DNA of 61,242 bases from Pseudomonadota bacterium (GTDB lineage Bacteria > Pseudomonadota > Alphaproteobacteria > Rickettsiales > UBA1997), in NCBI GenBank assembly GCA_040384945.1, contig JAZKII010000058.1:1-61242 (forward strand), in the 5' to 3' direction. Below the pieces are notes generated by a model that worked only from the letters and a program-made list of their open reading frames with translations, was not told the DNA's origin and did not search any database. Shown one piece after another: positions 4,158 through 56,353 of this stretch. The position numbers and the translations under genes are program-made. Numbering within the stretch: position 1 is the stretch's first letter; each line of letters opens with the position of its first letter.

Positions 4158-4182
4158 TTTATCAAACCGCGACTGAAACTTT

Positions 4183-4539
4183 TTAATTACTGTACCACTT
4201 TTGTGCGAGCTTATTTATTTCTTCCAGAATTTTATCCAGTTGCTTGCCTTGTTTAGTCAGGCTGTAAGTAACTTTCGGTGGAATTGTTTCTTCCTGAAAG
4301 CGGTTAAGGATTTTTGCTTCTTCTAACATGCGCAATCTTTCAGTTAAAACTTTTGATGAAATTTGCGGAATATTTTTTTTGATTTCGCCAAATCTTTGCG
4401 GGCCTTGTGATTTAATTAACCATAAAATATATGTTGTCCAAGGGCCGGAGAGTAAGTTCAACAGATGTTGCATCGGACAGCGAATTTTCATGTTCTCGCT
4501 GATCGATTTTGTGGAATTGATTTTCTTCTTTTGTGCCAT
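4183..4539 (-). CDS. HxlR-family winged-helix transcriptional regulator
   Basis: CPMQHLLNLLSGPWTTYILWLI..GPQRFGEIKKNIPQISSKVLTERLRMLEEAKIL..VTYSLT is the characteristic HxlR/DUF24 pattern. Confidence 0.85.
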   Translation of the reverse strand: MAQKKKINSTKSISENMKIRCPMQHLLNLLSGPWTTYILWLIKSQGPQRFGEIKKNIPQISSKVLTERLRMLEEAKILNRFQEETIPPKVTYSLTKQGKQLDKILEEINKLAQKWYSN

Positions 4540-5567: not shown

Positions 5568-6908
5568 ATGACTCTAGATCCAGTTCTACTCGCCCGCATC
5601 CAGTTTGCTTTTACCATCAGTTTCCACATTATTTTCCCCGCCTTTACCATCGGACTCGCCGGCTATCTTGCTGCAATCGAAGCGCTTTACCTAAAAAGCA
5701 AAAACATAATTTACAAAGAAATCTACAAATTCTGGGTCAAAATTTTCGCCATAATTTTCGGTATGGGCGTTGTTTCTGGCGTTGTTTTATCTTACGAACT
5801 TGGCACTAATTGGGCTGGCTTTTCATTCGCTACTTCCAATGTTTTAGGTCCGCTTTTCGGCTTTGAAGTTTTAACTGCTTTTTTCCTCGAAGCCTCATTT
5901 TTAGGAATCATGCTTTTTGGCTGGGAACGCGTTTCTGCAAAAATGCACTTCACTTCAACTTGTATAGTTGCATTTGGAACTGTGGTTTCGGCATTTTGGA
6001 TTTTAGCCGCAAATAGTTGGATGCACACGCCACAAGGTTTCATGGTAAAAGATAATGTTTTCTATCCCGTAAATTGGCTGGAAATTATTTTTAATCCTTC
6101 TTTTCCATACCGCTTTTTCCACATGGTGATCGCCACTTATTTAACCTGCGCTTTCGTGGTGGCAGGTGTTTCTTCCTGGTTATTATGGAAAAACCGCGAG
6201 TCACTTCACGCCAAAATAATGCTCAAAATGGCGCTTAATTTTATCATAATTTTTGTGCCGTTGCAAATTGCAGTTGGTGACATGCATGGCCTAAACACGC
6301 TGCATCATCAGCCGGCAAAAGTTGCAGCGATGGAAGGAATTTGGGAAACTGAAAAAGGCGCGCCGCTGACACTTTTCGGTATTCCTGATGAAGAAAGTGA
6401 AACTACAAAATATGCAATCCGCATTCCAAAAATGGCGAGCATGATTTTAACCCACGATCCAAAAGGTGAAATTGCCGGATTAAAATCTTTCCCCAAAGAC
6501 CAACGCCCGCCAGTACTTCCGATTTTTATTTTCTTTCGCGTGATGGTTGGAATCGGTGTTTTAATGTTGGCAACCGGTGTAATGGCTTTGTACTTATATC
6601 GTAAAAGAAAACTTTTTGAAGCGAGATGGTTTCAACTTTGGTGCATGGCGATGACACCAAGCGGATTTATCGCATTGCTTTCGGGTTGGTTTGTAACTGA
6701 AATTGGCCGCCAGCCTTATGTAGTTTATGGTTTACTGCGAACAAGAGAAGCTGCGTCAGTTATAGCGGCAGGGCAGGTGTTATTTTCGCTGATTGTTTTT
6801 GTGGTGGTTTATTTTGTGATTTTCGGGTCGGCGACTTTTTATATTTTAAGACAAATTGCCAAAGGGCCGCAGAAAATTGAAGGTCCAATTCAAACCTTAA
6901 ATAAATAA
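5568..6908 (+). CDS. cydA: Cytochrome bd ubiquinol oxidase subunit I (short Q-loop type)
   Basis: N-terminus LARIQFAFTISFHIIFPAFTIGLA, and EIGRQPYVVYG matches the GRQPW block. It is 446 aa with multiple TM helices and is followed by cydB. Confidence 0.9.
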   Translation: MTLDPVLLARIQFAFTISFHIIFPAFTIGLAGYLAAIEALYLKSKNIIYKEIYKFWVKIFAIIFGMGVVSGVVLSYELGTNWAGFSFATSNVLGPLFGFEVLTAFFLEASFLGIMLFGWERVSAKMHFTSTCIVAFGTVVSAFWILAANSWMHTPQGFMVKDNVFYPVNWLEIIFNPSFPYRFFHMVIATYLTCAFVVAGVSSWLLWKNRESLHAKIMLKMALNFIIIFVPLQIAVGDMHGLNTLHHQPAKVAAMEGIWETEKGAPLTLFGIPDEESETTKYAIRIPKMASMILTHDPKGEIAGLKSFPKDQRPPVLPIFIFFRVMVGIGVLMLATGVMALYLYRKRKLFEARWFQLWCMAMTPSGFIALLSGWFVTEIGRQPYVVYGLLRTREAASVIAAGQVLFSLIVFVVVYFVIFGSATFYILRQIAKGPQKIEGPIQTLNK

Positions 6909-21100: not shown

Positions 21101-22057
21101 ATCAAATTGTCTGATTTATTAGCTAATGATTCTGACATTGAAGATGGCGCTGCAATTCAAAATCTAACTTTAGATAAGTTTGTATTTAGCAATCCGGCCA
21201 AAGGAAAAATTGTTAAAGATGTTGTAAACAATGTTATTATTTACACTCCCAACAAAGATTATAACGGTGCCGATTCTCTAACCTATCAGATCAAAGACAG
21301 CAATGGCGCTCTTTCTAACAAATCTACCATTAGCCTGACTATTAATTCTGTTAATGATGCACCGGTTATCTCCACTAAATTAACCGACAAATCAGTTAAA
21401 GCCGGCAACTTGTTTAATTACACCTTGCCGACAAATTCATTTATCGATGCTGATAAAGATGCTTTAACTTACAGTGCTAAATTAGCTGATGGTTCTGATC
21501 TTCCTTCCTGGTTAAAATTTGATTATGTCACCAAAACATTTAGCGGAATTTCTCCTTCCGGAGTTGCTTCACTTTTATCAATCAAAGTAATAGCTAGTGA
21601 CGGATCTTTGGATGCTTCGCAAAGTTTTTCTTTAAACATTACCAGCAATGTAATTAACGGAACTGTCAAAAATGAGACCCTTAATGGCACTGCATTAAAT
21701 GATGAAATTTACGGCAATGACGGAATTGACAACATCAAAGGCAATGCCGGAAATGACTTAATAATTGGTGGAAAGGGTGCAGATGTTCTTCTTGGCGGAG
21801 CTGGAAATGATCAATTCATCTTTAAGAATCTAACCGATTCAACCATCAATGAAAGTGACCTCATTTTAGATTTCATTAAAGGCGAAGATAAAATCAATTT
21901 ATCTGGTCTGGGATTTCATGATATTGGCGGCAGTTCTGAACTTAGTTTGGCATATTACTTCGATGGCAAAAATACTGTGATTGACGATCCTAATTCAAAC
22001 TTCGCCGTGAAACTTGCTGGTGAAATCAGCTTGGATCACAATGATTTTGCTTTTTGA
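9200..22057 (+). CDS. Giant (4285 aa) T1SS-type RTX / cadherin-like repeat protein with an embedded subtilisin (S8) plus P-domain module
   Basis: - Many GGxGxDxUx nonapeptide blocks, for example GGAGSDSLQGGAGDDILI and GGAGNDVIMEGGGNDEVDGGDGYD.
- S8 motifs HATTVAGVIAA and GTSFSAPIISGVVALML, followed by a P-domain-like DGDWKLQITD..WQLKFYG (nt about 12035-13385).
- A coiled-coil region at about 13600-14130.
- More than 12 repeats of about 100 aa of the type NEDT..LDVL..DSDVDGD..YTP..NYNGSD.F.Y.I.D..G...VNDAP.
- SWLSF dystroglycan-type repeats.
- A C-terminal RTX block ending in DHNDFAF. Confidence 0.9.
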   Translation: MSTTINKSTLDQAQSLLNQGKVHEAWQTLAESGDNYALNAAKITDKNNDSFAKTLVQETWENTVGMAQYNEKFDAVAKQHLDNYLTSIRKINEKLPPENDLFVLPSTTNIEASYKKALESNGISTKAAIDGIINTVVSGADGLLGWTNWLDLFDGKWSNDYDIEDSRISDPYLKTDYSRFEAVEKIVTIGTESIYDESLDYVKGYLDNLYGDSQSLLHNLLSKQIEDQQSNLTSEQIDNSQLNLEINTNQTSGFAGSNDLTQTGNVIGDADWRALMKIDVVNGDGFKNIAMASMVSDYYRPGNQEISTYQNFAKDYGQQISNLDNIVYNNSQTSQNLFNNNTQLNVNLSNLTNNAIGARTFVNIDPVVLDLNGDGVKLTSYNDSEVTFDVDNDGMSERTGWVSNQDGILVDDVNHDGKINNITETISEYYNTKDGSVADADGKYSSDGLAALKKLDSNHDSKFNSSDAKWSDLRIWQDANGDGVTDAGELKTLNEAGIKEFDLSAITQASKERNAGNIIFSKTTYTTTDNQTKQVAAVDFTTNPIGYEFNDVNLGKLATSEDGTKSLVIGDVNGAIVTASQDTAQNIFGNIGNDTIIGDARDNWISGGAGSDSLQGGAGDDILIIDSEDKQQNIDGGDGRDVVIINSNQGVSFNLAQSHIETAVGGNGDDVLIGGGTSNVFIDGGSGDDIIIGGAADDALAGGDGDDYLDGGYGDDIIRGHRGNDVLIGGIGNDYLEGGLDDDKVFGGAGNDVIMEGGGNDEVDGGDGYDLVKYNGSYKDYKISRDGVNYKVQDLTTGNIDSIKNIEGVRFNDVTIKLIDGNISPLPVADVIQIQNKSDTIFISKDDLLKNDLDVEGDALTIISATNSTGGFAELVKDAGGNVLGVRFTPDKSFIGNMSFDYDVKDSKGAYTIITQQNNDGTSVAAAMKARVTFKLASDPTDDLYAKQWYLSEINIQKAWQDYTGSGVKIGVFEQGDFNVNHTELDGNTLQSYKDDVAFRQVEQFSQHATTVAGVIAAERNGTGIVGVAYDAKLEGYSWNADATGLANLKNVDIANNSWGAVGEFYDNFSDPNNLNSVYASLIEESVEQGRNGLGTINIFAGGNARASGDNVNYHNLQNSRFVITTGSINQPGDLATLTQASTPFSTPGDAILVSAPGSNISSTGNLLTNANGSTFLGEFSSNQGTSFSAPIISGVVALMLQANPNLGYRDVQKILALSARQFNDPNTTWQENGATNWNGGAMHFSHDYGFGEVDAAAAVRLAETWNEVSDSYNENSFSASDNFRTLLQDNGVITKQFTISNSNLHNIETVEVQVNLTDLDISDLTIKLISPSGTESILMDKPGSSVYQGGLSFNFSSRAFLGENVDGDWKLQITDSKTGDISYLNSWQLKFYGDLDDGTNDTYIYTDEFAKMIDGTRGIIIDSDGGIDTINAAAVSSDSIINLNAGQISNIAGKDVLITGGIKGEQYYQQQSLLPIKQAQLATVNSQIGVKNQALAADNTEFAGIDVAINAKYSEANAKYAEYQTAARNVANDWLSQNSFWTAYTDGSSSYYIYRNNSTGAQTTLPKNEAQQKINNYNGLITTQNQKASEYQSEVSQYNSLLTRRDALPNEISGLQNDIVTLTKQVSQLQSDINFINAYLNDFNDGKASMIENAYAGDGNDTIIGNDQDNKIWGGRGSNTETGGVGKDTFIIKQNAATQDVITDFKVGEDKIDLSDFKNLDLASLNLSQLANDVIISFESGQKIILQNLQVNQVSVDSFVGITGAVNVIDGTVGNDVLNGTARIDLIKAGAGNDTILGLLGDDYIDGGAGDDILLGGDGNDILIGGSGNNQLHGGKGNDIIDFGTGAESSLTDSVNYGFGEEGSDSFVISDKSIFLKHKYDVIVDFDVNDPNEKIDLSRIKGVDQYSDLQIFQNGADAYVAMNSNIFGYAELVKLENVNIASLNSSKFIITNEAPQAANDVASTNEDSSVIINLLSNDSDDKTSLKGSNLTIITNPIHGLLTINSDGTTTYKPNANFNGTDFFEYKIIDSGGLTSSKATVNLTVNPVNDAPVIVSIIADQKIYITKDINLKVDNFFTEVDGESLSYSVTLADGSNLPSWLSFNSQTLILSGQAPISASTFNVKITATDQSGFSNSETFKVTVDDSILFGTTGDDTLNGTENIDVINGDTGNDIINGLGGNDILYGAAGNDQISGGYGDDKLYGEDGDDILKGDVGKDLLDGGNGNDKLYSSGSGSDDTLTGGAGSDTFIIGNDIISNDVITDFNISDPNEKIDLSAFKDVATDISQLTMDQIGSDTKISFAGQSKTILVKNVSLSQLTVAKFIGLTDNKNSTGSLTINGTSGNDTLVGGSGDDIIKGNNGNDTIKGGLGSNLLTGGVGDDIFVISKNPGKTDVITDLEAFDSVQFDGFATGVKLSDFAYTENGNSVTFNLGEGQNLMFQNIKAADVLYYFSFISQTSLSDSSSVISYTGTAGNDKIVITTNSRNGDSINGGDGNDLISGNQKDDIIIGGKGNDILRGGDWCDIFQIDKNPGDKDTILDLAIKDMPDSIVLKGFSNTNLASYPAVQNGNDVVVDLGDGQTLTIKNFKVADVPYIASYSKDIYVSSNNVSGTDGDDLISRFDIGSSVKGTVIMNGGKGNDVLKGSNFDKDYFVIDKNSGDKDFVRSIDTSNGDKVIFRGFGDDILNQIKFLPSSDSYTLIMDLGDGQILRTYGVQQSSFSTYFDIEKPFLDATDGNDILKTGYLSVATIDGKAGDDIITGNDLGNNLSGGDGNDVINSGSGNDNIYGGDGNDVINDKGGNNIIEGGAGNDIINTGAGTDIINGGAGDDIINGGDGGDTINGGDGNDKLYSSGSGSNDILTGGLGSDIFVIGNDIISNDIITDFDVTDPNEKIDLSNFATSKNGFSTLAKISDLNITQVGNDAKINFSSASKTITIKNVKVSDLTADKFYLNNLPTATITSATINEDASTTIDVLSAASDLDNDVLSISAIGSASHGVATIVTDAQGKQKISYIPTVNYYGTDSFAYTISDGRGGTVTKTISVQINSVNDLPVVTLDSAITNEDTKVILDVLAYSSDVDGDTLSISSVTNGAHGQVLSFTDSDGKRKISYTPTTNYNGSDSFTYKISDGHGGIVTKTVSVNISAVNDVPTATLTSVTTNEDNATILDVLAFASDVDGDVLIISGVTAASHAAVSIINSSDGKQKISYIPQANYNGNDSFSYTISDGHGGEIVKTVTVNVISVNDVPIALITSAVTNEDTPTILDVLASASDVEGDILSITNVGTATHGFTAIFIDSDGYQKISYTPVENYNGLDYFTYKISDGHGGVVTKTVSVNVVSVNDAPTITKILSNVTTNEDSVFIIITADKISAAFADADVNDYLTYAITSVNGITTIPSWLSIDNNNGEITSNNPTNEDVGNYNIIITATDLSGLAISQSFFLTVNNVNDAPTASITSIATNEDNLVKIDVLSAASDIDASDILSLTSVTNGLHGTASIITDDNGNKVISYVPNANYNGSDIITYTISDNNGASVTKELTVTVSAVNDAPIIVSAAQNQTVQSGKAFTYTLSNNLFSDVDGDSLTIKATLADGSPLPSWLSFDGSKFSGTPNVSLATNFAIKLMATDPSGASISQNFGINVTNPNNAPIAKDDVFSMNEDASLTISFASILKNDSDVEDKTNIQKLTKDNIIFHNPGNGTITVTDSGIIYTPKANYNGSDSLTYQIKDSSGALSNMALINLTIKAVNDAPVAASDSFVTDEDTAITIKISDLLANDSDVEDGVNIQNTTFDKFVFTNPGKGVIVKDAVNGTITYTPNKNYNGSDVIYYQIKDSSGVLSNKAAINLTVNAVNDGPLAVNDVFATNEDTPLTITFASILKNDSDVEDGVNIKKLTKDNIVFGDSVNGTITITDTGIIYAPNKDFNGSDVITYQIKDSGGDLSNVASINLTIKAVNDIAVAGNDSFIADEDKPITIKLSDLLANDSDIEDGAAIQNLTLDKFVFSNPAKGKIVKDVVNNVIIYTPNKDYNGADSLTYQIKDSNGALSNKSTISLTINSVNDAPVISTKLTDKSVKAGNLFNYTLPTNSFIDADKDALTYSAKLADGSDLPSWLKFDYVTKTFSGISPSGVASLLSIKVIASDGSLDASQSFSLNITSNVINGTVKNETLNGTALNDEIYGNDGIDNIKGNAGNDLIIGGKGADVLLGGAGNDQFIFKNLTDSTINESDLILDFIKGEDKINLSGLGFHDIGGSSELSLAYYFDGKNTVIDDPNSNFAVKLAGEISLDHNDFAF

Positions 22058-22066
22058 AGATGAATT

Positions 22067-23326
22067 ATGAATTTTCTTCAGGTTCGTTTTTCATTTATAA
22101 TCTGTCTTACATTATTTACATATAATGATGTTTTGGCGACCAACTTGCGCGATGCCATTGATACTGCTCAAGTTAATAATCGTAATATAAAACTTGAGCA
22201 AATCAGGCTTAATTCGGTAAAGACTGAAAAAACCAGGGCAATTTCTGAGTTTCTACCAAATGTCAGTGCCAATGCCGGATATGGACAAAGAAACAGCTAT
22301 TATTCAGGTCAAACTTATGATCGTTCCACCAAACAAAAAACCGAAGAAATAAAACTGGAACAACCAATTTTTGATGGGTTGCATTCAGTTTCGAAATATC
22401 ATGAAGCTAACTATAAAATAAAATCTGGCAGTGCTAAAACTTCTGACAAAGTTCAAGAGGTTTCATTGGGCGCGGTGCAGAGTTATTGCAATCTTTTTCG
22501 CTATCAAGAACTCTCAAAAATTCATGAAGAAAATAAAGAACTTGGGTCTAAATTTCTGGCATTGGTAAGTCGCAGAAAAGAAGCCAGAATCATCGATCAA
22601 GCTGATATCATTAAATTTACTTACGAAGCATCTCTTACCGAAGAGAAATATCTCGATTCCTTAAATCGCCTCAACAAAGCCAAATTTGATTATCAAAATA
22701 TTATTGGCCAACTTGATGAAAACCTTATCACTCCCGAAATTACCGAAGAAGAATTTACCAAAGATAGAATTCTCGAATCAGCGTTGGCCAATAATCACAA
22801 TATAAAATCTTACCATTACAACTATCTTGCTTCCAAAGCTGCTTACAACGCCGAGCAATCAAACTTTTTGCCCAAAGTTTCATTGACTGCTTCAGCAAGT
22901 AAGCAGGAGAAAGTTGTTTACCTCAACAACCAAGATCTCAATCAACAATCAGTTTTCTTAAATCTTTCGGTGCCGATTTTTCAAAAGGGTGTGGAATATG
23001 CCAATGTCAGTAAAGCCGGATATGATCGCGATGCGGCAAAAGAAGAATTTGAAATCACCCGCGATAATGTCATCAAGGAAGTTAATCAGGCGCTGGAAGA
23101 ATATCGCTTTTTTTCCGAGATGAATAAAAGCAACAAAAAGCTTTTCGAGCTGGCTAAAAATCGTGCTGATATTTTTATCGCCAGATCAAATTTAAAAGTT
23201 GAAGATCCAATCGAAGTAATACGCGCCAAGATCGAAGCCAATGACAGAAAAATAAATTATATCGATTCCCAAATGGATTTGGTTATCGTTCACTACAAGA
23301 TCAAATATTTTTTGGGAGAAATATGA
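22067..23326 (+). CDS. tolC: TolC-family type I secretion outer-membrane protein
   Basis: Signal peptide, then LRDAIDTAQVNNRNIKLEQIRL. The protein is 419 aa with two internally similar halves. It lies immediately downstream of the RTX gene and upstream of the ABC/MFP genes. Confidence 0.8.
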   Translation: MNFLQVRFSFIICLTLFTYNDVLATNLRDAIDTAQVNNRNIKLEQIRLNSVKTEKTRAISEFLPNVSANAGYGQRNSYYSGQTYDRSTKQKTEEIKLEQPIFDGLHSVSKYHEANYKIKSGSAKTSDKVQEVSLGAVQSYCNLFRYQELSKIHEENKELGSKFLALVSRRKEARIIDQADIIKFTYEASLTEEKYLDSLNRLNKAKFDYQNIIGQLDENLITPEITEEEFTKDRILESALANNHNIKSYHYNYLASKAAYNAEQSNFLPKVSLTASASKQEKVVYLNNQDLNQQSVFLNLSVPIFQKGVEYANVSKAGYDRDAAKEEFEITRDNVIKEVNQALEEYRFFSEMNKSNKKLFELAKNRADIFIARSNLKVEDPIEVIRAKIEANDRKINYIDSQMDLVIVHYKIKYFLGEI

Positions 23327-23331
23327 GAAAT

Positions 23332-23362
23332 AAGGGAATAGGGAATAGGGGGTAGGAAATAG
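23332..23362. repeat. Array of 4 GGGAATA-type heptamers upstream of the four-helix-bundle gene
   Basis: aagggaatagggaatagggggtaggaaatag is complementary in register to the C-rich array at 23730-23762. Confidence 0.8.
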
Positions 23363-23363
23363 T

Positions 23364-23720
23364 ATGGCTATAGAAAGGTTTGAGGATATTAAGGCTTGGC
23401 AGAAGGCTCAGGATTTGGCTGTGGATGTTTATTTTATATTCGGAAAAATAAAAGATTTTGGATTTAGAGATCAAATTTGTCGTGCAGTAGTTTCGGTATC
23501 AAGCAATATAGCAGAAGGATTTAGCCGTAGTAGTAATGCCGATTTTGTTCGTTTCCTTTACATAGCAATTGCTTCCTGCAATGAAGTAAGATCATTGCTT
23601 TATCTGGCTCAAAGACTTGATTATTTACCACCAGAAAGAAAAGACTATTTAACAAAAAATGCAGACGAAGTGGCAAAAATTATCAAAGGATTGATAAAAT
23701 CAATGACAAAAAAATCATGA
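23364..23720 (+). CDS. Four-helix-bundle protein (23S rRNA intervening-sequence protein / Avd-like family)
   Basis: 118 aa with FEDIKAWQKAQDLAVDVY..FRDQICRAVVSVSSNIAEGFSR.S..DFVRFLYIA.AS..E....L.LA. This is the classic pattern of this family. Confidence 0.8.
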   Translation: MAIERFEDIKAWQKAQDLAVDVYFIFGKIKDFGFRDQICRAVVSVSSNIAEGFSRSSNADFVRFLYIAIASCNEVRSLLYLAQRLDYLPPERKDYLTKNADEVAKIIKGLIKSMTKKS

Positions 23721-25417
23721 CCAAACCAACCTATCCCCTATCTCCTATTCCCTATTTCCTAGCATGCTGCAAGCGTGCTTTCTACTTTTGTCTGCTATTT
23801 AGTTTTTTTATCAGCATTTTTACTCTCGCTTCTTCAGTTTATTCGATGCAGGTTTTGGATCGGGTTTTGAGTAGTAATAGTTTTGAAACGCTGCTTTATC
23901 TCACCATTATTGTTTTGGCCTTTTTGATTTTTCTGGGAATTTTAACTCAAGTTCGATCAACAATATTTTTACATATTTCCAATTGGCTCGATGAAAAATT
24001 GTCGCCGGTTTTATTCAATAGCAGCATCGAAGCGCAAGGCTCAAATAAAAATATCAGCAGCCAAAATATGCGCGATTTACAAACCATTAAAGGCTTTATT
24101 TCCGGTCCCAATCTGGCAGTGTTGTTTGATGCGCCTTTTGCGATTGTTTACTTTCTCATGATTTTTTTCATTCACTGGATCAACGGATTAATTACTTTAG
24201 TTGGTGGATTGGTAATGTTAAAAATGGCTTACATTAACGAAAAAACCACCAAGGAATTGATTGATAAAACTAACCAAATGCAGTCTGAAGTGCTGCGGGA
24301 TTTTGAGATTATTTCTTCCAATTCTGAAGTGATTAATGCGATGGGAATGAAAGGAAATGTGCGCGGAAATTGGCAGGCTGGTAATGATGAATTGCGCAAA
24401 GCTTCAGCGGATTTGGCCACTCTTACCAATCGAATTTCTACAATTTCCAAAACACTTAGAATGGCGCTGCAAACTTTAACAATGGCCTCAAGTGCAATTT
24501 TAGTGATGTTTAACAAAATGTCTTCCGGTGGAATTATCGCCACTTCAATTTTAGCCGGTAAAGCGCTGGCGCCATTTGATAATGCTATTGGACTTTGGAA
24601 ATCATTTAAAACAACCAAAGCCGCTTATCTGCGTTTGAATGAATCGCTAAAAAATTATGTTGAAGATAAAGGGAAAATAGAACTCCCAATTCCAACGGGA
24701 GAAATTGTGGTTGAGAAGTTGATCTATAAAATTCCCAACTCCGATCGCCTTCTCATCAAAGGCGTTTCTTTCAAGATTAATCCGAGTGAAGTAATCGGAA
24801 TTATTGGTCCAACCGGCAGCGGGAAAACTACTTTAGCCCGGCTTTTAGTTGGTGTTTTAAAGCCTAGTTCAGGAATTGTAAAAATTGATGGCGCCAATCT
24901 TTTTGATCAGGATTTAGAAAAAACCGGCAAACATATCGGCTATTTGCCGCAAGATGTTGAGTTGTTTAAAGGCTTGGTAAAACATAATATCGCCAGAATG
25001 AATAAAGAAGCCCAAGCCGAAGAAATCATCAAAGCCGCAAAATTTTGCGATGTTCATGAAATTATTTTATCACTATCGCAAGGCTACGAAACAGTGATTG
25101 AAAAAGATGCTGCAAATTTATCGGCGGGACAAAAGCAAAGAATTGCTTTGGCTCGTGCTTATTTTGGCGATGTAAAATTTGTGGTTCTTGACGAGCCAAA
25201 TTCCAACCTTGATGCGGAAGGAGAAAATGCTTTAAATAATGCAATTCTTCGCGCCAAAGAAAATGCCATCACAACTGTTATAATTACTCACCGTACTTCA
25301 GCAATTTCAATATGCGATAAAGTGATGCTGTTAAAAGATGGCGAAGTAAAAGCATTTGATAATGCGGATAAGATTTTAGGAAAATCATCGCAAGCAGCTT
25401 TGGGAGTAGGGGCATGA
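23717..25417 (+). CDS. Type I secretion ABC transporter, PrtD/AprD-like (no N-terminal C39/CLD domain)
   Basis: SMQVLDRVLSSNSFETL lies in TM1. Walker A GPTGSGKTT, signature LSAGQKQRIALARA and Walker B VVLDEPNSNLD are present. It is 566 aa and shares a 4-nt ATGA overlap with the previous gene. Confidence 0.9.
   Translation: MTKPTYPLSPIPYFLACCKRAFYFCLLFSFFISIFTLASSVYSMQVLDRVLSSNSFETLLYLTIIVLAFLIFLGILTQVRSTIFLHISNWLDEKLSPVLFNSSIEAQGSNKNISSQNMRDLQTIKGFISGPNLAVLFDAPFAIVYFLMIFFIHWINGLITLVGGLVMLKMAYINEKTTKELIDKTNQMQSEVLRDFEIISSNSEVINAMGMKGNVRGNWQAGNDELRKASADLATLTNRISTISKTLRMALQTLTMASSAILVMFNKMSSGGIIATSILAGKALAPFDNAIGLWKSFKTTKAAYLRLNESLKNYVEDKGKIELPIPTGEIVVEKLIYKIPNSDRLLIKGVSFKINPSEVIGIIGPTGSGKTTLARLLVGVLKPSSGIVKIDGANLFDQDLEKTGKHIGYLPQDVELFKGLVKHNIARMNKEAQAEEIIKAAKFCDVHEIILSLSQGYETVIEKDAANLSAGQKQRIALARAYFGDVKFVVLDEPNSNLDAEGENALNNAILRAKENAITTVIITHRTSAISICDKVMLLKDGEVKAFDNADKILGKSSQAALGVGA
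23730..23762. repeat. Array of 4 TATYCCC-type heptamers, the inverted partner of 23332-23362, inside the ABC gene 5' end
   Basis: cctatcccctatctcctattccctatttcctag is translated as YPLSPIPYFL at the N-terminus of the ABC transporter. Confidence 0.8.
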
Positions 25418-26652
25418 AGATAGGAAAAATCGAATCAAAAATTGCGGAAAATTCTATTAATTACGGAGTTAAATCCCTGATTCTTTTTGCGGTAATTTTT
25501 CTGGGCTGGGCGGCGTTTTTACCAATTCAATCTGCTTCAATTGCGGATGGTGTTATTGTGCTCGATTTCAATCGCAAAAACATTCAGCATTTGGAAGGTG
25601 GCATCATTGATCAGATTCTGGTTAAAGAAGGACATATTGTAAATGAGGGAGATGTTTTGCTTTATCTTCACGACATCAGAGCCAAAACCGAGCAGCAGAT
25701 TTTAAAAGAAAGATTGTGGGCGATGCAGCTACAAAAAGAGCGCCTCGAAGCTGAAAAAGAAAATAAACAAAATTTGAATCTGGAGAATTTTTTCTCGGAA
25801 GTCGGGGAATTGGCGCAAGATGATAATTCCAAATTGCAGGAAATTGCCGCGAATCAATTAAGGCTTTTCAAATCAAGAAGTGGTAAGAGAAAAGGGGAAA
25901 TAAAAGTTTTGGAGAAGAAGCTGAAATCAGCGGAAACGAGGTTAAGGCTTTTTCAAACAGAACTCAGCTTAATCAAACCGCTGGTTGAGGAAAATAATTT
26001 ACCGATTTTGCGGGAATTGGATTTGCAGAAATCAATCGCTCAAGCCGAAGAAGAAGCTGAAACAGCAAAATTGCAAATCGCCAATTACCAAAATAGCGAT
26101 TTGTCGGATACTCTAAAAGAAATCAAAGAAAGCGATATGGAAATCGTTGGTCTTTATAACCAACTTGCAGCCTCAAAAGATGTTTTAAAAAGATCAGCAA
26201 TTAAATCTCCGGTGTCGGGAAAGGTGATGAATATTAAATATCACACGATTGGCGCCGTTGTTCCTCCGGGCGGCGAAATTATGAATATCGTTCCGCAACA
26301 TGAAGAGCTAATTATTGAAGCCAAAATAAAGCCTCAAGACATTGATAATGTTGTCGTGGGAATGAAATCAAAAATTCAACTTACTGCTTATAAAGGCAAA
26401 AAAGTTCCAAAAATTAATGGCGAAGTAATTAATGTTGCGCCAGATATTTTAACCAACGAACAGACCAGAGAATCTTATTTCTTAGCCAGAGTCTCCATCA
26501 GCAAAAAAGACATCGAAAAACTCAAAAGCAAAGTTGAACTTTACCCTGGAATGCCCGCGCAAGTCTTCATCATAACCGGATCGCGGTCTCTAGTTTCTTA
26601 CATGTTTACACCAATTTCAGATTCAGCTTATAAGGCGTTTAGGGAAGAATAA
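25414..26652 (+). CDS. HlyD-family type I secretion membrane fusion protein
   Basis: One N-terminal TM helix, then DGVIVLDFNRKNIQHLEGGII..ILVKEGHIVNEGDVLL (lipoyl-like block). A long coiled coil follows, then a C-terminal beta domain with PGMPAQVFI. It overlaps the ABC gene by 4 nt. Confidence 0.9.
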   Translation: MKIGKIESKIAENSINYGVKSLILFAVIFLGWAAFLPIQSASIADGVIVLDFNRKNIQHLEGGIIDQILVKEGHIVNEGDVLLYLHDIRAKTEQQILKERLWAMQLQKERLEAEKENKQNLNLENFFSEVGELAQDDNSKLQEIAANQLRLFKSRSGKRKGEIKVLEKKLKSAETRLRLFQTELSLIKPLVEENNLPILRELDLQKSIAQAEEEAETAKLQIANYQNSDLSDTLKEIKESDMEIVGLYNQLAASKDVLKRSAIKSPVSGKVMNIKYHTIGAVVPPGGEIMNIVPQHEELIIEAKIKPQDIDNVVVGMKSKIQLTAYKGKKVPKINGEVINVAPDILTNEQTRESYFLARVSISKKDIEKLKSKVELYPGMPAQVFIITGSRSLVSYMFTPISDSAYKAFREE

Positions 26653-32260: not shown

Positions 32261-35200
32261 ATGCCAAGCTTAAAACTTCAATATCCACCGTTAAGCACTT
32301 TTGTCATTAGCAGCGAAAAGGGTCCAAGAATTAGTCCAACCACCAATATACCAACTGTTCACGAGGGAATAGATTTTGCAATTGCAGATGGAACGAATTT
32401 ATATAATGCTCATGATGGAACAGTGATATTTTCTGGAACATCTGTGGGATATGGAAATACAATTGTAATACAGGATAAGATTAGTGGGGAATCAACTCTA
32501 TATGCTCATCTAAGTGCAATATTTTTTCACAAGAGCGATCCTATAACTGGTAAAACCCCAATTGGTACAACAGGTAATAGTGGAACTAGCGCATATCACC
32601 TTCATTTTGAAGTCTTAAGTAAAGAAATTTCTGATAACTTAGCATCAAGCTCTAGTGGAAAAATACCAAAGTCAGGCCGTCTCAACCCACGCTCTTACAT
32701 TGCTGCTTCCCCTTTTGCATCAATGCTCTCAACTGAAGTACATAGTAAGGAATTAGGCTTTGGCACAAGAGAAGGAGATAGTCGTTCCAACACCATGGTT
32801 CGCGACAATGTTGGAACATATTATGGCACTCAAATGGTCTTTGATGGCAAAGAAGGATATGATACATATAAACTTAAACTTTCTTACACCGGCCAGAGAA
32901 TTGTAAAAAATACAAAAGACACTCATATAGTTCAAAGCCAAGATGCTATAAGTGATGCTGATTTAGATGGCAAAATAATAATCGATACCGGATCTCAAAA
33001 TATTCTTCTTTCCGGCAATGCTCTTCCAAAAACCGGAGTTTTAGGAGAGATTATAGCGGGAGAATGGACGTTAGATGGGTTAAATCTTTTACAAGATGGA
33101 GATGATCTAGTTGCGACTAAACTTGGTGTAAAACTTGCTGATTTTAAAGGAATTACAAATCCTAAAGTTCCAACTATTCCTATCAAAAACTTCCCTTTCT
33201 CCAATTCCCGCGGTGGCTTTGGAATTACATTAGGGAAAAAAGCTGATCTAAGTTTAGGCGAAGATGTTTTCAGCCTGACATTAACCGATTCTTATTTGCC
33301 ACAAGGCGCATTTGCTGTGGCTTCATCCGACAAAGGATTATTTGGTTCTTTGGCGATGCTTGATTCTCAAGGCTCGGAATTACCTGTTTCTCACAGCATT
33401 GGAGTTTTCGATAATTTCGGAAATCAATTAGCAACTCACGATGTTGAAACTGTAGTTAAATCATCTGTTGATGCTGAGATGTTAACTCCAGAAATTGGAG
33501 TAGGGATTAGAATCGGAGCTGGATATTCTTCCGGTGGATATGTTGTATTTCCGATTGCAGAAAGTGGCTATATTGCTGGCGGAAGTTTGCAATCCAGAGT
33601 TGGCGCACTTTTAACTGATGCTTCAGGTAATGTTTTAGCAGCCAATATTTACGACAACACCAATTCCCAAACCCAAAATAAAGTCGCTCGCAATGGTGCA
33701 ATCTTGGTCGGCAAAGATGATCCCAGTAAATTATATTTTAGCTACTCACTAGAAAATATCGGCCGCGATGTCGGAACTATGGTTTATCAAATTGACCCAA
33801 CTTCATTAGAACCAATTGGCGATGTAGTTTCTTACAGCGCTTATACTTGGTCTAGAGATAGCGGAGCTCTTTACCAAAGTCCTTATTCTTTAAGCACACA
33901 GCCGGATAGATATCATTTTAAACTTACAAATGGTGCGACAGTTGATATTGGAAATGATGGTAAAACTATTACTTCCAGAATGACAAAGTTGCGTGATCTT
34001 TTCCCCGATGAAATCATTCCCAATTATGATTTAGCTTCCGGCTCGCAATCAACCAATTCGGAATTAGCACAACAAATTTTAACTTTGGGTGATGCAACAA
34101 TTCTTGATGTTGTTGAAAATCCTAATTCTGTAGTGGCAGTTTTAAATCTTGATCCAACTACAAATCCCAATTCAAAAGTAACTTTCTCTGCTTTTGATTC
34201 TTCACAGGTTGCAGCTTATGCAACTGATTCGAGCCAATATAGCATTGATGCGCTTTTAAGCGGTGAAGCCAAAACTTCTGATATGCAATTGGTTTATGGC
34301 GCAGCGCGAACCAGAAGATTAACTGATGGCGTTGAGGATGTTACCGATCCTTATTATTATTCTTATGGCAGCAACGCTACCTATTCAGATTATTATTACG
34401 GGTCAAATTATGGCAATTATACGGATGATTCTGTTGCCGATGATGATGAATTACCTGCTTTAATCTCATATCCTTACACTTTTCTTGAACTGCCGAATAA
34501 CCAGACTGTAGTTTTAGTTGGTGTAAATGGCACGGAACTTGCACAATCTCCGTATAGTTTTTTTCTGACTAGTGAAAATATAACTCATGCCCCATCAAGC
34601 TATCCAAGCGGGCAGCCAACTCCCAACCCTTTTGCAATTTCCAGAGCAGAACCAACAAGTCAGCCATCAAATCAGCCGACAGTTCCACCTTCAATTCAAC
34701 CAAGTACACAACCAACCGGCGAACCTTCATCACAACCAACTTATCTTCCGACGGTAGGAGAGATAATAAGCACAAGTCCAACTTCATTACCATCGTCTGC
34801 TCAGCCAACTGGTCAGCCTTCAATTCAACCAAGTACACAACCAACCGGCGAACCTTCATCACAACCAACTTATCTTCCGACGGTAGGAGAGATAATAAGC
34901 ACAAGTCCAACTTCATTACCATCGTCTGCTCAGCCAACTGGTCAGCCTTCAATCCAACCAAGCAGAAAACCATTTGCTCATCCAAGTACAATTCCATCCT
35001 ATAAACCAGCGGCGATTCCATCTTTTAAGCCAACTAGACCAAGCGTGCAGCCAACCACAGAGGCTTCGGCACAATTAAATTCTAATCCCAGCGCGCAGCC
35101 AAGTTCTAGGCCAACAAATAATCCTTCATTAGATCCAACTCATCATCCAATTGCCGGCGATTTATCTGTAAGTCCTACATCACAACCAAGTGTTAATCCA

Positions 35201-35575
35201 AGTTCACAACCAAGTCAGAAACCAAGCAGGAATTTAAGAACTGCGAGTCCGACAAGTTCTAGCCCGGTGAGTGACAAGCCAATCAGCATCTATCCAACAG
35301 CAATTCCGACAGTTATGGGAACAGGATTTCCAACAATCAATTCTACTTTTAATCAATCTTTGCCGCAATTTCCAAATCAAATTCCAACTCATAATCAAAA
35401 TTCCAATTTTATGGAAAGCCCGGGAGGGATTGCTGTTGCGGCTACAGCAGCATTGTTATTAACAGTAGTTGGGTTGAAATGGGTTTTTAGAAAAGGTGAG
35501 CCAAAGGTGAGCCCAGAGAAAGCTTACGCATCTCAGGTAGAGCAGAGTAATGGGATAGGATTAGGAAAAGGCTAA
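32261..35575 (+). CDS. 1104-aa protein: N-terminal M23 peptidase domain, central unknown domain, Tyr/Asp-rich and P/S/T/Q-rich repeats, C-terminal TM anchor
   Basis: VHEGIDFA (HxxxD) and AYHLHFEV (HxH), with no signal peptide. PS.QPT-type repeats run from about nt 34585 to 35400. A TM helix GGIAVAATAALLLTVVGLKWVF lies at about 35423-35491 and is followed by a basic tail. Confidence 0.8.
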   Translation: MPSLKLQYPPLSTFVISSEKGPRISPTTNIPTVHEGIDFAIADGTNLYNAHDGTVIFSGTSVGYGNTIVIQDKISGESTLYAHLSAIFFHKSDPITGKTPIGTTGNSGTSAYHLHFEVLSKEISDNLASSSSGKIPKSGRLNPRSYIAASPFASMLSTEVHSKELGFGTREGDSRSNTMVRDNVGTYYGTQMVFDGKEGYDTYKLKLSYTGQRIVKNTKDTHIVQSQDAISDADLDGKIIIDTGSQNILLSGNALPKTGVLGEIIAGEWTLDGLNLLQDGDDLVATKLGVKLADFKGITNPKVPTIPIKNFPFSNSRGGFGITLGKKADLSLGEDVFSLTLTDSYLPQGAFAVASSDKGLFGSLAMLDSQGSELPVSHSIGVFDNFGNQLATHDVETVVKSSVDAEMLTPEIGVGIRIGAGYSSGGYVVFPIAESGYIAGGSLQSRVGALLTDASGNVLAANIYDNTNSQTQNKVARNGAILVGKDDPSKLYFSYSLENIGRDVGTMVYQIDPTSLEPIGDVVSYSAYTWSRDSGALYQSPYSLSTQPDRYHFKLTNGATVDIGNDGKTITSRMTKLRDLFPDEIIPNYDLASGSQSTNSELAQQILTLGDATILDVVENPNSVVAVLNLDPTTNPNSKVTFSAFDSSQVAAYATDSSQYSIDALLSGEAKTSDMQLVYGAARTRRLTDGVEDVTDPYYYSYGSNATYSDYYYGSNYGNYTDDSVADDDELPALISYPYTFLELPNNQTVVLVGVNGTELAQSPYSFFLTSENITHAPSSYPSGQPTPNPFAISRAEPTSQPSNQPTVPPSIQPSTQPTGEPSSQPTYLPTVGEIISTSPTSLPSSAQPTGQPSIQPSTQPTGEPSSQPTYLPTVGEIISTSPTSLPSSAQPTGQPSIQPSRKPFAHPSTIPSYKPAAIPSFKPTRPSVQPTTEASAQLNSNPSAQPSSRPTNNPSLDPTHHPIAGDLSVSPTSQPSVNPSSQPSQKPSRNLRTASPTSSSPVSDKPISIYPTAIPTVMGTGFPTINSTFNQSLPQFPNQIPTHNQNSNFMESPGGIAVAATAALLLTVVGLKWVFRKGEPKVSPEKAYASQVEQSNGIGLGKG
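34688..34945 (+). repeat. Exact tandem duplication, 2 x 129 bp (43 aa), in the proline-rich region
   Basis: The unit PSIQPSTQPTGEPSSQPTYLPTVGEIISTSPTSLPSSAQPTGQ occurs twice, with copies starting at 34688 and 34817. A third copy starts and then diverges. Confidence 0.9.
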
Positions 35576-43632: not shown

Positions 43633-43752
43633 GGGAATTATAAATTATTTAAGGTCGGAATTATTTATTTAGCTTCAAGTTTTGCTTTTTGTAAATTTAA
43701 TAACAAACTCTACTTAGATATATCTTAAATCCTAAATCTAAAATCTAAAATT

Positions 43753-44430
43753 ATGTATCGCCTTTACCATCATTCACTTTGCCCTTTTTCGCGCAAAGTA
43801 CGAGTTCACATGGCTGCAAAGGAAATTGGCTTTGAGCTGGTTCCTGAAAATTTCTGGGAAAGACGCAAAGAATTTATCGCCATGAATCCGGCCGGAAGCT
43901 TGCCAGTGTTGTTTGATAATGCCAATTCGGCAGTGATTTCAAACAGTTCAACTATTGTTGAATATATTGAAGAAAAACATCAAGAAACTAAAAATTTTAT
44001 CGGCGATTCAGTTGTAACAAGGGCGGAAGTGCGTCGTTTGCAAAATTGGTTTGATGAAAAATTTTATAATGAAGTCAGCAAACATGTTTTAAATGAACGC
44101 CATTTTAACCGCTATTTGCCGGGAGTTAATGCCCCTGATTCGGAAGTTTTAAGAGTTGCGCGACGCAATTTAAACATTCATTTAAGCTATATTGAATATT
44201 TGCTTGAAACCAGAAAATATCTTGCTGGAGATCATATTTCAGTTGCTGATTTTGCAGCTGCGGCGCAAATTTCGGTGCTGGATTATTTCGGCGATATTAA
44301 CTGGCATCATTATTTGCCGGCAAAGGATTGGTATAGTTTAATCAAGTCGCACAAGATTTTCGGCGAAATTTTAAAAGACCGCATTCCCAACGTAAATCCG
44401 CCGGAATGGTATTCTAAATTAGATTTCTAA
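43753..44430 (+). CDS. Glutathione S-transferase family protein
   Basis: Thioredoxin-fold N-terminus YHHSLCPFSRKVRVHMAAKEI..PAGSLPVL. A C-terminal helical domain contains YLAGDHISVADF. Confidence 0.7.
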   Translation: MYRLYHHSLCPFSRKVRVHMAAKEIGFELVPENFWERRKEFIAMNPAGSLPVLFDNANSAVISNSSTIVEYIEEKHQETKNFIGDSVVTRAEVRRLQNWFDEKFYNEVSKHVLNERHFNRYLPGVNAPDSEVLRVARRNLNIHLSYIEYLLETRKYLAGDHISVADFAAAAQISVLDYFGDINWHHYLPAKDWYSLIKSHKIFGEILKDRIPNVNPPEWYSKLDF

Positions 44431-44433
44431 AAC

Positions 44434-45432
44434 ATGATTCAGCTAGATGAAAAGCAGGCGCGCGAGTTTCTTGCTAAAAATAATATAAAAGATTGCGAGA
44501 TAAAAAAAATCGCCGGAGATGCATCTTTTCGTTCTTATTACCGAATTTTTTTTGGTGAAGAAACTAACATTTTAATGTTCGCACCTCCCGGTTATGAAGA
44601 TGTGCGACCATTTGTGAAGATTGATGAATTTCTGGTTTTAAATAGTTTTTCTGCTCCCAAAATTTTTGCCCGCGATGAAGAATTAGGTTTTCTGCTTCTG
44701 GAAGATTTAAATGATGACACTTACGGCCGCGTACTTGCAACTGATGATTCATCAGAATTAACGCTTTATGAAAAAGCCTGTGATTGCTTGCTTGAATTAC
44801 ATCAACTTGAAGCGCCAAAAGATTTGCCGCTTTACAATCACGCTTTGCTTTTTCGCGAAGTGATGTTGTTTATTGATTGGTTTATTCCTGCGCAAAAAAA
44901 AGAAATTACTTTGGCAGAAAAAGCACAGTTTAAATTTTTATGGTTTCAACTTTTTGACCAATTAAGTCAATTTAACGCTGTACGAAATCATCTGGAAAAA
45001 AATTCAACTTCGGTGTTGGTTTTGCGCGATTATCATGCGGATAATTTAATGATTTTGCCAAGTCGCGAAGGCTACAAACAAGTCGGTTTGCTCGATTTTC
45101 AAGATGCAGTTATCGGACCAAAAGCCTATGATTTGGTTTCGCTTCTTGAAGATGCAAGACGTGATGTTAATTCTGCAAATCGCATAAAACTTTTTGATTA
45201 TTATTTAGAAAAATCTAATTGCGATAGAGCAGAATTTAGGCGCGATTATGAAATTTTATCTTTGCAGCGTAACATAAAAATAGTTGGGATTTTTTCTCGT
45301 CTTTCAATGCGCGACGGTAAACATGATTATTTAAATTTATTGCCGCGGGTTCTTGGTTTTGTAAAGTCCAGACTAGAATCGGGAAATCCGCTTTTTGCTG
45401 AAATGTCTCAATTGCTTAAAAAATTTATTTAA
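44434..45432 (+). CDS. Aminoglycoside-phosphotransferase-fold kinase, AmgK-like (anomeric MurNAc/GlcNAc kinase)
   Basis: GDASFRSYYRI, LRDYHADNLMIL and LLDFQDAVIGPKAYDLVSLLEDAR blocks. Confidence 0.65.
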   Translation: MIQLDEKQAREFLAKNNIKDCEIKKIAGDASFRSYYRIFFGEETNILMFAPPGYEDVRPFVKIDEFLVLNSFSAPKIFARDEELGFLLLEDLNDDTYGRVLATDDSSELTLYEKACDCLLELHQLEAPKDLPLYNHALLFREVMLFIDWFIPAQKKEITLAEKAQFKFLWFQLFDQLSQFNAVRNHLEKNSTSVLVLRDYHADNLMILPSREGYKQVGLLDFQDAVIGPKAYDLVSLLEDARRDVNSANRIKLFDYYLEKSNCDRAEFRRDYEILSLQRNIKIVGIFSRLSMRDGKHDYLNLLPRVLGFVKSRLESGNPLFAEMSQLLKKFI

Positions 45433-45436
45433 AAAT

Positions 45437-45937
45437 ATGGCTATCAATAAAAGTGAATTGGCAAACCAAAATCTTGATGTTCCTTCGTCGGTTCCAAATA
45501 ATGCTTCGGCTGAAATCATTGCCAACCTGCAATTAATCAGTGAAGTATTTCAAAAAATCGAGGAAGAAACCGCAGAAATGGCGGAGTTGATTTTTGATTA
45601 TTTGATTAATGCGACAGATGAACAAATCATGAATGGCACGATTCCCATTCATAAAAATAAAAGAATTAATGATTATATTAAAATTCTGAATCGCCTGTTT
45701 TTATTTTCGCGTAAAGCTTCAAAATCCGGGGGTTTAAGAATCATCAATCGTGAAACAGTTGAAGAGTTAGATAAAAAAACTTTTATGATTTGTATGGTTC
45801 AAGATGGCGGTGTTTCGCTGGATATTTTATGTGACATTGTAAATACAGAAAACCAGGCCAGAACTCCAAATGCTTCGCCGGTGAAAGTTACGGTCAGACA
45901 ATTATTTGGTGTGTCTCAAGGTACGGAAAGAATTTAG
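45437..45937 (+). CDS. Hypothetical protein
   Basis: ORF with its start set at MAINKSEL, because the longer form overlaps the preceding gene. I recognise no motif. Confidence 0.45.
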   Translation: MAINKSELANQNLDVPSSVPNNASAEIIANLQLISEVFQKIEEETAEMAELIFDYLINATDEQIMNGTIPIHKNKRINDYIKILNRLFLFSRKASKSGGLRIINRETVEELDKKTFMICMVQDGGVSLDILCDIVNTENQARTPNASPVKVTVRQLFGVSQGTERI

Positions 45938-46010
45938 TTTTTTTCAGCGGCAGGCTTCTTTTTCGAGGCAGAAGCAGAGTAGTATAGTAAGTCACAGTCA
46001 TAGAAATAGA

Positions 46011-46044
46011 AAAGGCGGGATCTCGTGGGAGATCCCGCCTTTTC
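46011..46044. terminator. Bidirectional rho-independent terminator hairpin
   Basis: aaaggcgggatctc-gtgg-gagatcccgccttt has A-tracts and T-tracts on both sides. It lies between convergent genes. Confidence 0.8.
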
Positions 46045-46076
46045 ATTTACTTTTTAGATTTTCTACTTTCTAAAAC

Positions 46077-46280: not shown

Positions 46281-46288
46281 AATTTTTT

Positions 46289-47041: not shown

Positions 47042-47109
47042 GTGGAGGATTTTTTAAGAAATTTTTTTGTTAAGAATTTATAATATATTTTTGAGATCGT
47101 ATAGAATTG

Positions 47110-47200: not shown

Positions 47201-47281
47201 AGATTGGGTTATCACGTCATACGATTTTTATGCAAGTGTGGATTTGTATGTACAAAATACATCTTTCAAGCAAACACAAAA

Positions 47282-47992: not shown

Positions 47993-47999
47993 AAATTTT

Positions 48000-56335: not shown

Positions 56336-56353
56336 TATATTATTTTGTGTTTG

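Follow-up and report, generated by a model that had tools for sequence, protein, structure and literature searches.

A four-helix-bundle gene enclosed by complementary heptamer arrays at the tolC-prtD junction of a Rickettsiales type I secretion operon: an accessory cassette with the architecture of rRNA intervening sequences

The stretch of DNA analyzed in this work (the window, 61,242 nucleotides (nt), contig JAZKII010000058.1 of assembly GCA_040384945.1, assigned to the Rickettsiales) harbors a type I secretion system (T1SS) operon in which a small gene, coding for a four-helix-bundle (4HB) protein of the family known from the intervening sequences (IVSs) of 23S rRNA, is embedded between tolC and prtD and is enclosed by two heptamer arrays complementary to each other. 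The giant open reading frame (ORF) that heads the row, tolC, prtD, and hlyD are all co-directional, and the features on which the following analysis relies are these:

9200-22057, forward strand: giant ORF of 4285 amino acids (aa), the presumed T1SS substrate, heading the same co-directional gene row
22067-23326, forward strand: gene for an outer-membrane channel of the TolC/OEP family (profile match), whose stop codon adjoins the 5' arm
23327-23764, forward strand: whole cassette-derived segment (438 nt), compared with positions 5998-6063 of the related locus L081 and standing in place of 63 nt (prtD codons 1-21)
23326-23362, forward strand: 5' arm, a non-coding heptamer array (lead-in plus four purine-rich units) filling the spacer between tolC and the 4HB gene
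23364-23720, forward strand: 4HB gene, intact, 118 aa (PF05635/TIGR02436; "S23p", 23S rRNA IVS protein)
23730-23761, forward strand: 3' arm, a pyrimidine-rich complementary heptamer array translated as part of prtD
23717-25417, forward strand: prtD, gene for a PrtD-type T1SS ATP-binding cassette (ABC) transporter (profile matches, including TIGR01842)
25414-26652, forward strand: gene for a T1SS adaptor of the HlyD family (profile match), overlapping the end of prtD by 4 nt

The 4HB protein matches the family PF05635 (23S_rRNA_IVP) along the entire profile (positions 1-106 of 106) with E = 1e-32 and 112.9 bits (cut-off 33.8), and TIGR02436 ("four helix bundle protein") with 112.6 bits (cut-off 24). 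These matches bear out a first-pass annotation, based on the sequence alone, which had recognized between tolC and the ABC gene a 118-aa ORF of the 23S rRNA IVS/Avd-like four-helix-bundle type. In the PDB, the protein matches the pentameric four-helix-bundle proteins 2GSC (1.3e-11) and 2RLD (8e-10), a similarity which indicates that it is homologous to these toroids, while the match to the PHROGs entry "Avd protein of DGR" (diversity-generating retroelement) is weak (E = 1.8e-4). Its translation also contains the RxxxSxxxNxxEG motif, in the form R-AVV-S-VSS-N-IA-EG; the consensus published for the family is GxxRxxxSxxxNxxE (PMC3936711), whose leading G is found at -3 neither in the protein of the window nor in 2GSC. 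The ratio between nonsynonymous and synonymous substitution rates (dN/dS) of the 4HB gene is 0.08 when the window is compared with the related locus L105, and likewise 0.08 between the related loci L001 and L106. These values are like the one obtained for the 3' end of tolC (0.09). The 4HB gene is under purifying selection and is a working gene.

The 37-nt spacer following the tolC stop codon is made up of the lead-in GAAATAA, of the four units GGGAATA, GGGAATA, GGGGGTA, and GGAAATA, and of the dinucleotide GT, immediately after which the 4HB ATG is found. Tandem Repeats Finder reported here a period of 7 with 4.3 copies (23333-23362), ending 2 nt before this ATG, and arrays with the same period at 23730-23761; thus, the two complementary arrays of four heptamers that had been noticed by reading the sequence were recovered where they had been placed. 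The 3' array (TATCCCC, TATCTCC, TATTCCC, TATTTCC) begins ten nt past the 4HB stop codon and complements the upstream one, the inverted-repeat arms 23333-23367 and 23726-23760 (35 nt) being 80% complementary. The heptamer motif, searched for with up to 3 mismatches, occurs eight times in the window versus 0.96 expected, a number that was reached in none of 100 shuffles; six of the eight occurrences are the two arrays, and the window contains one copy of the cassette.

The minimum free energy fold of 23325-23770 pairs the two arrays with each other, and the predicted arm-arm duplex has 24 + 4 = 28 bp and an energy of -45 kcal/mol. This is in agreement with the stem of about 28 bp that had been envisaged around the ORF. 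In a 700-nt context, the pairing probability of the arrays is about 1.0, distributed over two registers lying 7 nt apart (61% and 38%). The 5' arm also carries Shine-Dalgarno-like AGGA/GGAA sequences, with AGGA located 8 nt before the 4HB ATG. No T-run follows the arm-arm stem, so that it does not have the form of an intrinsic terminator. The non-coding 5' array is identical between the window and L105 at 34 of 37 positions, even though the synonymous divergence of the flanking genes (dS about 1.3-1.45) is near saturation, which indicates that the array is constrained. On these comparisons, both the 4HB gene and the non-coding array are conserved by selection.

A further hairpin, terminator-like, is found at 23761-23779 (AGCATGC, TGC, AAGCGTGCT, then TTCTACTTTT), that is, directly after the 3' arm and within prtD codons 16-21; the locus L081, whose junction is empty, does not have a hairpin of this type (TCTTGTAAAAGAGCT). 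This structure, which lies in conserved coding sequence, is probably due to chance, and it could add to attenuation.

The 3' end of the cassette merges with the beginning of prtD. The prtD ORF starts at 23717, its ATG overlapping the 4HB TGA as ATGA, and residues 6-16 of the product (YPLSPIPYFLA) are read from the 3' array, both of which had been described in the first-pass annotation. Homology with the relatives begins at Cys17/Cys18 (CKRAF), and position 2 of the TIGR01842 PrtD profile aligns to residue 16. Judging by the PrtD homologues, the host is a Rickettsiales/Pelagibacterales-like alphaproteobacterium. As for other possible starts, a candidate ATG just after the array (23764-23766) was discarded as out of frame, and strong conservation across all the homologues marks the region that precedes the next in-frame ATG (M44). 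Position 23717 is the only plausible start of prtD, because a start at M44 would delete the conserved first transmembrane segment.

In L081, the closest relative (PrtD 93% and TolC 87% identical), there is no 4HB gene and the TAA of tolC is directly followed by the prtD ATG, the 438 nt of the window (23327-23764) standing in place of 63 nt corresponding to prtD codons 1-21; hence, the cassette supplies the prtD ATG and the first 16 codons. Eight further relatives share a cassette-free junction with a canonical prtD N-terminus, ML(K/G)NLQIQQPxQQ..LxS or shorter (e.g., MIPNQPQKIIKTALDS in L083). The idea that the cassette had donated the start of the transporter gene is therefore supported by the different, conserved N-terminus (MLxNLQIQQPxQQ...) of the empty-site relatives, and the only relative found with the array-encoded N-terminus of the window, L105 (MNRPTNISYPLSPIPYFLS), carries the cassette. 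The comparison of the sequences thus indicates that prtD lost its first 21 codons to the cassette, which now provides the gene's ATG and 16 N-terminal codons.

The same junction was found in different states among the relatives of this operon. The 4HB gene is absent from the T1SS operons of L081, L083, L085, L086, L088, L089, L091, L093, and L101-L104, and a 4HB cassette occupies the tolC-prtD junction in at least five other loci (L105, L082, L084, L001, and L106). L105 has the same GGGRRTA/TAYYYCC arrays as the window and a 4HB protein 85% identical to the one encoded there. The arrays are built of TAAGGCN heptamers in L082, of about ten AGTCGTA units in L084, and of AGGAGGC/AGAAAAC- or CAGT-type units in L001 and L106; the units, therefore, differ among the occupied relatives and yet match between the two arms. 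In every occupied allele, prtD starts at the 4HB stop codon or 2 nt after it, and the cassette's own 3' array is translated. The 4HB gene of L084 (2081-2436) is frameshifted, being covered by two overlapping tblastn segments in different frames; despite this, the arrays and the array-encoded PrtD N-terminus are intact. At L106, the region 5' of the 4HB gene (positions 1-130) carries a long array (AGGCAGT AAACAGG AAACAGT GAGCAGT, twice) followed by its own complement, which together form a hairpin devoid of an ORF, and a third complementary array is located downstream of the 4HB gene.

Other junctions lack the 4HB gene and have an unusual prtD start. In L102 (2495-2560), the tolC stop codon lies 6 nt before the prtD ATG, and four CCTTAC-type heptamers encode the N-terminus (MKKPLLLTPYSLLIS); in L092, a PrtD N-terminus like that of the window (MNKPNHSESAISYSLAY) is found without a 4HB gene. 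These two junctions are probably the scars of lost cassettes. Several of the cassette-less relatives have odd, scar-like PrtD N-termini that differ from that of the window. In the contig P0234 (JGI 3300059473), tolC and prtD are separated by a gap of 437 nt without a called gene and PrtD has an odd N-terminus (MSNKHHPLSPASCLLA), the gap being as long as one would expect of a 4HB cassette that is degenerate or was not called. In L087 (483-2448), tolC and prtD are separated not by a 4HB cassette but by a gene of some 1.7 kb with many GGxGxD-like (RTX) repeats; the presence of this gene implies that the junction accepts other insertions too.

In the PrtD phylogenetic tree the occupied alleles are scattered among the empty ones, and TolC of the window shares 83% of its residues with L083, which is empty like the still closer L081, and only 70% with L105, which harbors the same type of cassette. 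The distribution of the cassette is therefore incongruent with the host genes. The 4HB proteins of the junction cluster in part (the window and L105 with L001 and L106), with poor resolution. The history of the junction could be one of repeated insertion, or else ancient occupied alleles could have been exchanged by homologous recombination. In any case, as judged from the coexistence of empty and occupied junctions, the cassette is accessory.

We compared the cassette with 86-88 4HB loci, derived from a contig scan with one genome per species (80 loci) and from the relatives; the 80 scan loci span Bacteroidota, Nitrospirota, Patescibacteria, Planctomycetota, Spirochaetota, and other phyla. 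The arms were scored by a Smith-Waterman alignment of the 100 nt upstream of each 4HB gene with the reverse complement of the 100 nt downstream, and the median score was 33.5 for the arms of the same locus, 16 for arms of different loci, and 17 for the direct orientation (Mann-Whitney p = 2.4e-30; Wilcoxon p = 6e-16). At 71 of 86 loci the score exceeded the maximum of 20 shuffles. Arrays thus flank other members of the family, at loci from other genomes, whereas their absence around further copies of the gene family in the same genome was what the first-pass annotation had named as speaking against its proposal. The most common period is 7, followed by 8, and the unit varies from cassette to cassette (e.g., AAAGTCG, AAGTTTA, GGGGTCC, and AAGTCTGTA), even between two cassettes of the same contig (L045, L007, L061).

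Most of these cassettes lie inside gene rows. Both neighboring ORFs are co-directional with the 4HB gene at 70 of 79 loci (44 of 53 after de-replication), the median gaps being 49 and 46 nt. At 49 of 63 loci the start of the next gene lies past the 3' arm, normally at a distance of about 13 nt, so that a translated 3' array as in the window represents a minority (5/63). The arms also have a strand polarity, the 5' arm containing more G than C at 53 loci versus 12 and being purine-rich at 51 versus 15, although these loci are not phylogenetically independent. A copy on a Nostoc plasmid, located inside a gene row, has GGGAAAA-type and complementary CCCTTTT-type arrays. In L024, from a metagenome-assembled genome of Spirochaetota, a 4HB cassette with inverted AGTCGRC-type arms (4001-4357) is located in the 16S-23S spacer, with a tRNA (3882-3954) on one side and the start of the 23S gene (4430) on the other; its location is intermediate between those of the rRNA IVSs and of the mRNA operons, and an Rfam scan of 17 loci other than the window found rRNA only here. 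Overall, the sequence features shared by these loci indicate that the cassette of the window belongs to a pan-bacterial class of 4HB cassettes residing inside co-directional gene rows.

Two sites are occupied in an orthologous manner in many genomes. The first, found at 22 Flavobacteriaceae loci (L012-L068), precedes a 482-aa ORF and in most cases follows a 109-aa ORF, with AAAGTT-type units, and the second, found at nine loci of Flavobacterium and related genera (L061-L080), lies between a 248-aa and a 438-aa ORF, with AAAGTC-type units. The conservation of these two sites across genera suggests a long vertical residence, during which the arrays keep one unit type within the lineage.

The architecture just described closely resembles that of ORF-bearing rRNA IVSs. 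The 23S IVS of Coxiella is 428-444 nt long; its terminal stem measures 28 bp, and the S23p ATG is preceded by three to four GACAGAT heptamers. RNase III cuts this IVS midway along its stem, removing the purine-rich Shine-Dalgarno region, and its ORF was reported to be decaying and untranslated (Warrier et al. 2016, PMC4990558). Like the 23S IVSs of Coxiella and Leptospira, the element of the window (435-438 nt) has a protein of the same family encoded in its loop, and it shares with the Coxiella IVS the inverted repeats that make up a terminal stem of about 28 bp, heptamers in tandem right before the ATG of the ORF, a purine-rich Shine-Dalgarno-like region inside the 5' arm, and, presumably, its being part of a host transcript. 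The likeness to an IVS proposed in the first-pass annotation is, thus, upheld in length, stem, heptamers, and position of the ORF. There are also differences: the element is located between T1SS protein genes rather than in helix 45 or helix 9 of the 23S rRNA, its 3' arm encodes the N-terminus of the following gene's product, and its ORF is under strong purifying selection (dN/dS 0.08) instead of decaying. Moreover, cleavage by RNase III is known in Coxiella, whereas in the window a cut is only predicted and would damage the downstream cistron.

The ORF-containing 23S rRNA IVSs of Coxiella burnetii and Leptospira reportedly go back to Ralph and McClelland in 1993. Besides these rRNA IVSs, it is already known that PF05635 genes are widespread outside rRNA, including 23S_rRNA_IVP genes noted inside cas operons (PMC3936711), and a PF05635 gene has been noted beside transporter genes in UCYN-A. 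Such free-standing TIGR02436/PF05635 genes of Bacteroidota, Cyanobacteria, and other groups belong to the same family and are likewise placed between co-directional genes, and most of those we compared carry the same inverted tandem-repeat arms. They differ from the gene of the window in having been catalogued as genes only and in that the next gene mostly follows the 3' arm, without an N-terminal fusion. In the literature that could be searched, which is incomplete, we found no description of inverted tandem-repeat arms around non-rRNA PF05635 copies, nor of the operon-internal co-orientation of 4HB genes or of the replacement of the N-terminus of a host gene.

On the whole, we lean toward the idea that a promoterless IVS-type 4HB cassette resides in the tolC-prtD junction and acts through an RNA stem. 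The two parts of this interpretation do not have the same strength: that the element is an accessory cassette of the IVS type, belonging to a widespread class, is very probable on the basis of the comparisons reported above, and the mechanism based on the stem and RNase III, suggested by analogy, is a close call that we would place slightly on the doubtful side. According to this interpretation, the cassette would be transcribed by read-through from the promoter of the operon. The Shine-Dalgarno-like purine repeats of the 5' arm would hand translation on from tolC to the 4HB gene, and the ATGA overlap would hand it on to prtD, in place of the ancestral TAA-ATG coupling. Whenever free of ribosomes, the arms would pair into the helix of about 28 bp, which would occlude the ribosome-binding site of the 4HB gene and, if it behaves like the 23S IVSs of Coxiella and Leptospira that encode a 4HB protein, might be a substrate of RNase III. 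In a cassette of the typical form, cutting at mid-stem would take the element cleanly out of the polycistronic RNA and leave both neighboring cistrons intact; in the window, a cut falling 13-44 nt downstream of the prtD ATG would decapitate prtD. Since the 3' arm begins 13 nt past the only plausible start of prtD, processing would be expected to lower the expression of the ABC transporter and of the membrane fusion protein (MFP) rather than to give rise to a separate functional message. The suggestion, made in the first-pass annotation, that processing might uncouple substrate/TolC from ABC/MFP expression is awkward in this respect, because a mid-stem cut would leave prtD without its ATG.

Several observations weigh against the interpretation that we favor. 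Removal of the prtD start by a cut in the 3' arm is hard to square with an intact and conserved prtD-hlyD pair, unless cleavage is rare; the formation of the stem in vivo and its cleavage by RNase III are things that we infer, and the z-score of the fold of the whole region is only -2.4. At the two orthologous Flavobacteriaceae sites, the arms of a given locus pair hardly better with each other than with those of other species (p = 0.08 and p = 0.04), which means that there is no fine-scale compensatory signal. Among the mismatches between the arms, read on the sense strand, 39 are G·U-compatible versus 49 of the A·C type; given the absence of a G·U excess, it may just as well be DNA in which pairing matters. 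As to the "mobile IVS-like cassette outside rRNA" of the first-pass annotation, its accessory nature is sustained by the empty and occupied junctions; the cassette encodes no recombinase, no mechanism of mobility was identified, and no target-site duplication is visible at the junctions of the window, L082, L084, and L001.

Another possibility is that the arrays act at the DNA level, where they would be the terminal inverted repeats of a miniature cassette that transposes or recombines, mobilized in trans by an enzyme of the host or of another mobile element, or by hairpin/cruciform-dependent recombination, the RNA stem being a by-product. The presence/absence of the cassette among close relatives, incongruent with the host genes, and the lack of a sense-strand G·U bias fit this explanation, and a transposition origin had been proposed earlier for the inverted repeats of IVSs (PMC4990558, discussion). 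The cassette is also similar to miniature inverted-repeat transposable elements (MITEs) and to repetitive extragenic palindromes and bacterial interspersed mosaic elements (REP/BIME) in its small size, inverted termini, intergenic location, and strain-variable presence; unlike them, it harbors a protein gene that is conserved, it ends in tandem arrays of short period that differ between copies, no target-site duplication is seen, and it has a strong orientation bias with respect to host transcription. Because the array units differ between cassettes, even on one contig (as at L045, L007, and L061), a sequence-specific transposase is unlikely; besides the missing target-site duplications at the four junctions, no transposase or recombinase adjoins the cassette of the window, and neither the co-orientation (70/79 loci) nor the purine/pyrimidine polarity of the arms is predicted by a DNA-level role. 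We regard this explanation as unlikely, although it deserves a real share of attention. It is less probable, in our opinion, that the heptamer arrays are the binding sites, in RNA or DNA, of the 4HB pentamer, a ring of five subunits reading about five tandem units for autoregulation or for the formation of a ribonucleoprotein that drives processing or mobility, as Avd binds reverse transcriptase (RT) and RNA in DGRs. The homology to the pentameric toroids 2GSC and 2RLD, the weak PHROGs match to Avd, the presence of about 4-5 units of 7 nt in the window and in L082, and the purifying selection on both protein and array agree with such a role; however, the number of units varies widely (about ten in L084, eight in L001), and the units differ greatly between proteins that are 60-75% identical.

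Two other explanations would make the 4HB gene a resident of a larger system. It might be a dedicated accessory component of the T1SS, with the hairpin being an ordinary regulatory or stabilizing structure internal to the operon, an idea suggested by its co-orientation and translational coupling with the T1SS genes and by 4HB genes occupying this junction in six or more related operons. We consider this very improbable: the gene is missing in the closest and in most other relatives, where tolC and prtD abut, the same architecture is found in unrelated operons, in an rRNA spacer, and on plasmids across many phyla, and the copy at the junction of L084 is frameshifted. Finally, the 4HB gene might be the Avd accessory gene of a DGR, or a remnant thereof, considering that PF05635 is the Avd-like family (PMC10053308) and in view of the PHROGs match; bAvd of DGRs (PDB 4DWL) has what appears from the sequence to be a homologous fold, a pentameric and basic four-helix bundle with a nucleic-acid/RT-binding role (PMC10053308). 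An RT domain is absent from all 24 ORFs that were scanned across 139-43632, a set comprising neither the giant ORF nor those of 43753-61155, which makes a DGR origin unlikely. In addition, the neighbors are T1SS and housekeeping genes, the only repeats at the cassette are short tandem heptamers, with no template/variable repeat (TR/VR) pair, inverted heptamer arrays are not a feature of DGRs, and a PADLOC search returned no match, so that this explanation already looks untenable.

Turning back to the IVS-type cassette that we favor, a broader and more speculative idea can be put forward, which we hold to be improbable in its entirety: PF05635 cassettes might be tiny autonomous elements, pan-bacterial and "operon-riding", whose Avd-like pentamer would recognize its own heptamer arms, in RNA or single-stranded DNA, directing their excision from host transcripts, their spread, or both. 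The rRNA IVSs would then be the special case noticed first, and the rewriting of host 5' ends, as for prtD, a side effect. Since 1993 it has been asked what the "23S rRNA IVS protein" does and how ORF-bearing rRNA IVSs arose. The comparison reported here indicates that the IVS architecture is not specific to rRNA and represents the standard packaging of the 4HB family in operons, in an rRNA spacer, and on plasmids of many phyla. The family can be modelled as a cassette-type element that depends on read-through transcription by the host. Among close relatives, the tolC-prtD junction is found empty, occupied, pseudogenised, or scarred; these states provide a clean natural experiment, and they show that a cassette can replace the start codon and the N-terminus of an essential transporter gene. 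In genome annotation, array-encoded N-termini and operon-internal "four helix bundle protein" genes should be read as insertions.

As for the surroundings of the cassette, the L081 orthologue of the giant ORF (4249 aa) has RTX (Peptidase_M10_C), cadherin, and Big_9 domains. The guanine-plus-cytosine content of the cassette (0.34) is the same as that of its surroundings and, thus, gives no compositional sign of a recent transfer. The Rfam scan of the window detected no rRNA and no other family, the element being located between tolC and prtD and not in a helix of 23S or 16S rRNA, and a tblastn search of phage genomes gave no match. Another 118-aa ORF, on the reverse strand (4183-4539), was considered as a candidate for a second 4HB gene and discarded, as by eye it resembles an HxlR-type regulator instead. 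An ORF of 1104 aa with M23-peptidase and PT-repeat features (32261-35575) contains a 129-nt unit in 2.1 copies with 99% identity (34688-34962), near which further short proline/threonine-rich repeats are found. Two solo heptamer arrays are also present in the window, in divergent intergenic regions and with no inverted partner seen: one at 43722-43751 (TCTTAAA TCCTAAA TCTAAAA...), ending exactly at the ATG of the ORF 43753-44430, and one at 56877-56911 (TCTAAA TCCTAAA TCTTAAA TCTAAAA TCCTAAA), ending exactly at the ATG of the ORF 56912-57376. They could be remnants of cassettes that were lost, or else a feature of leader regions with no relation to them.

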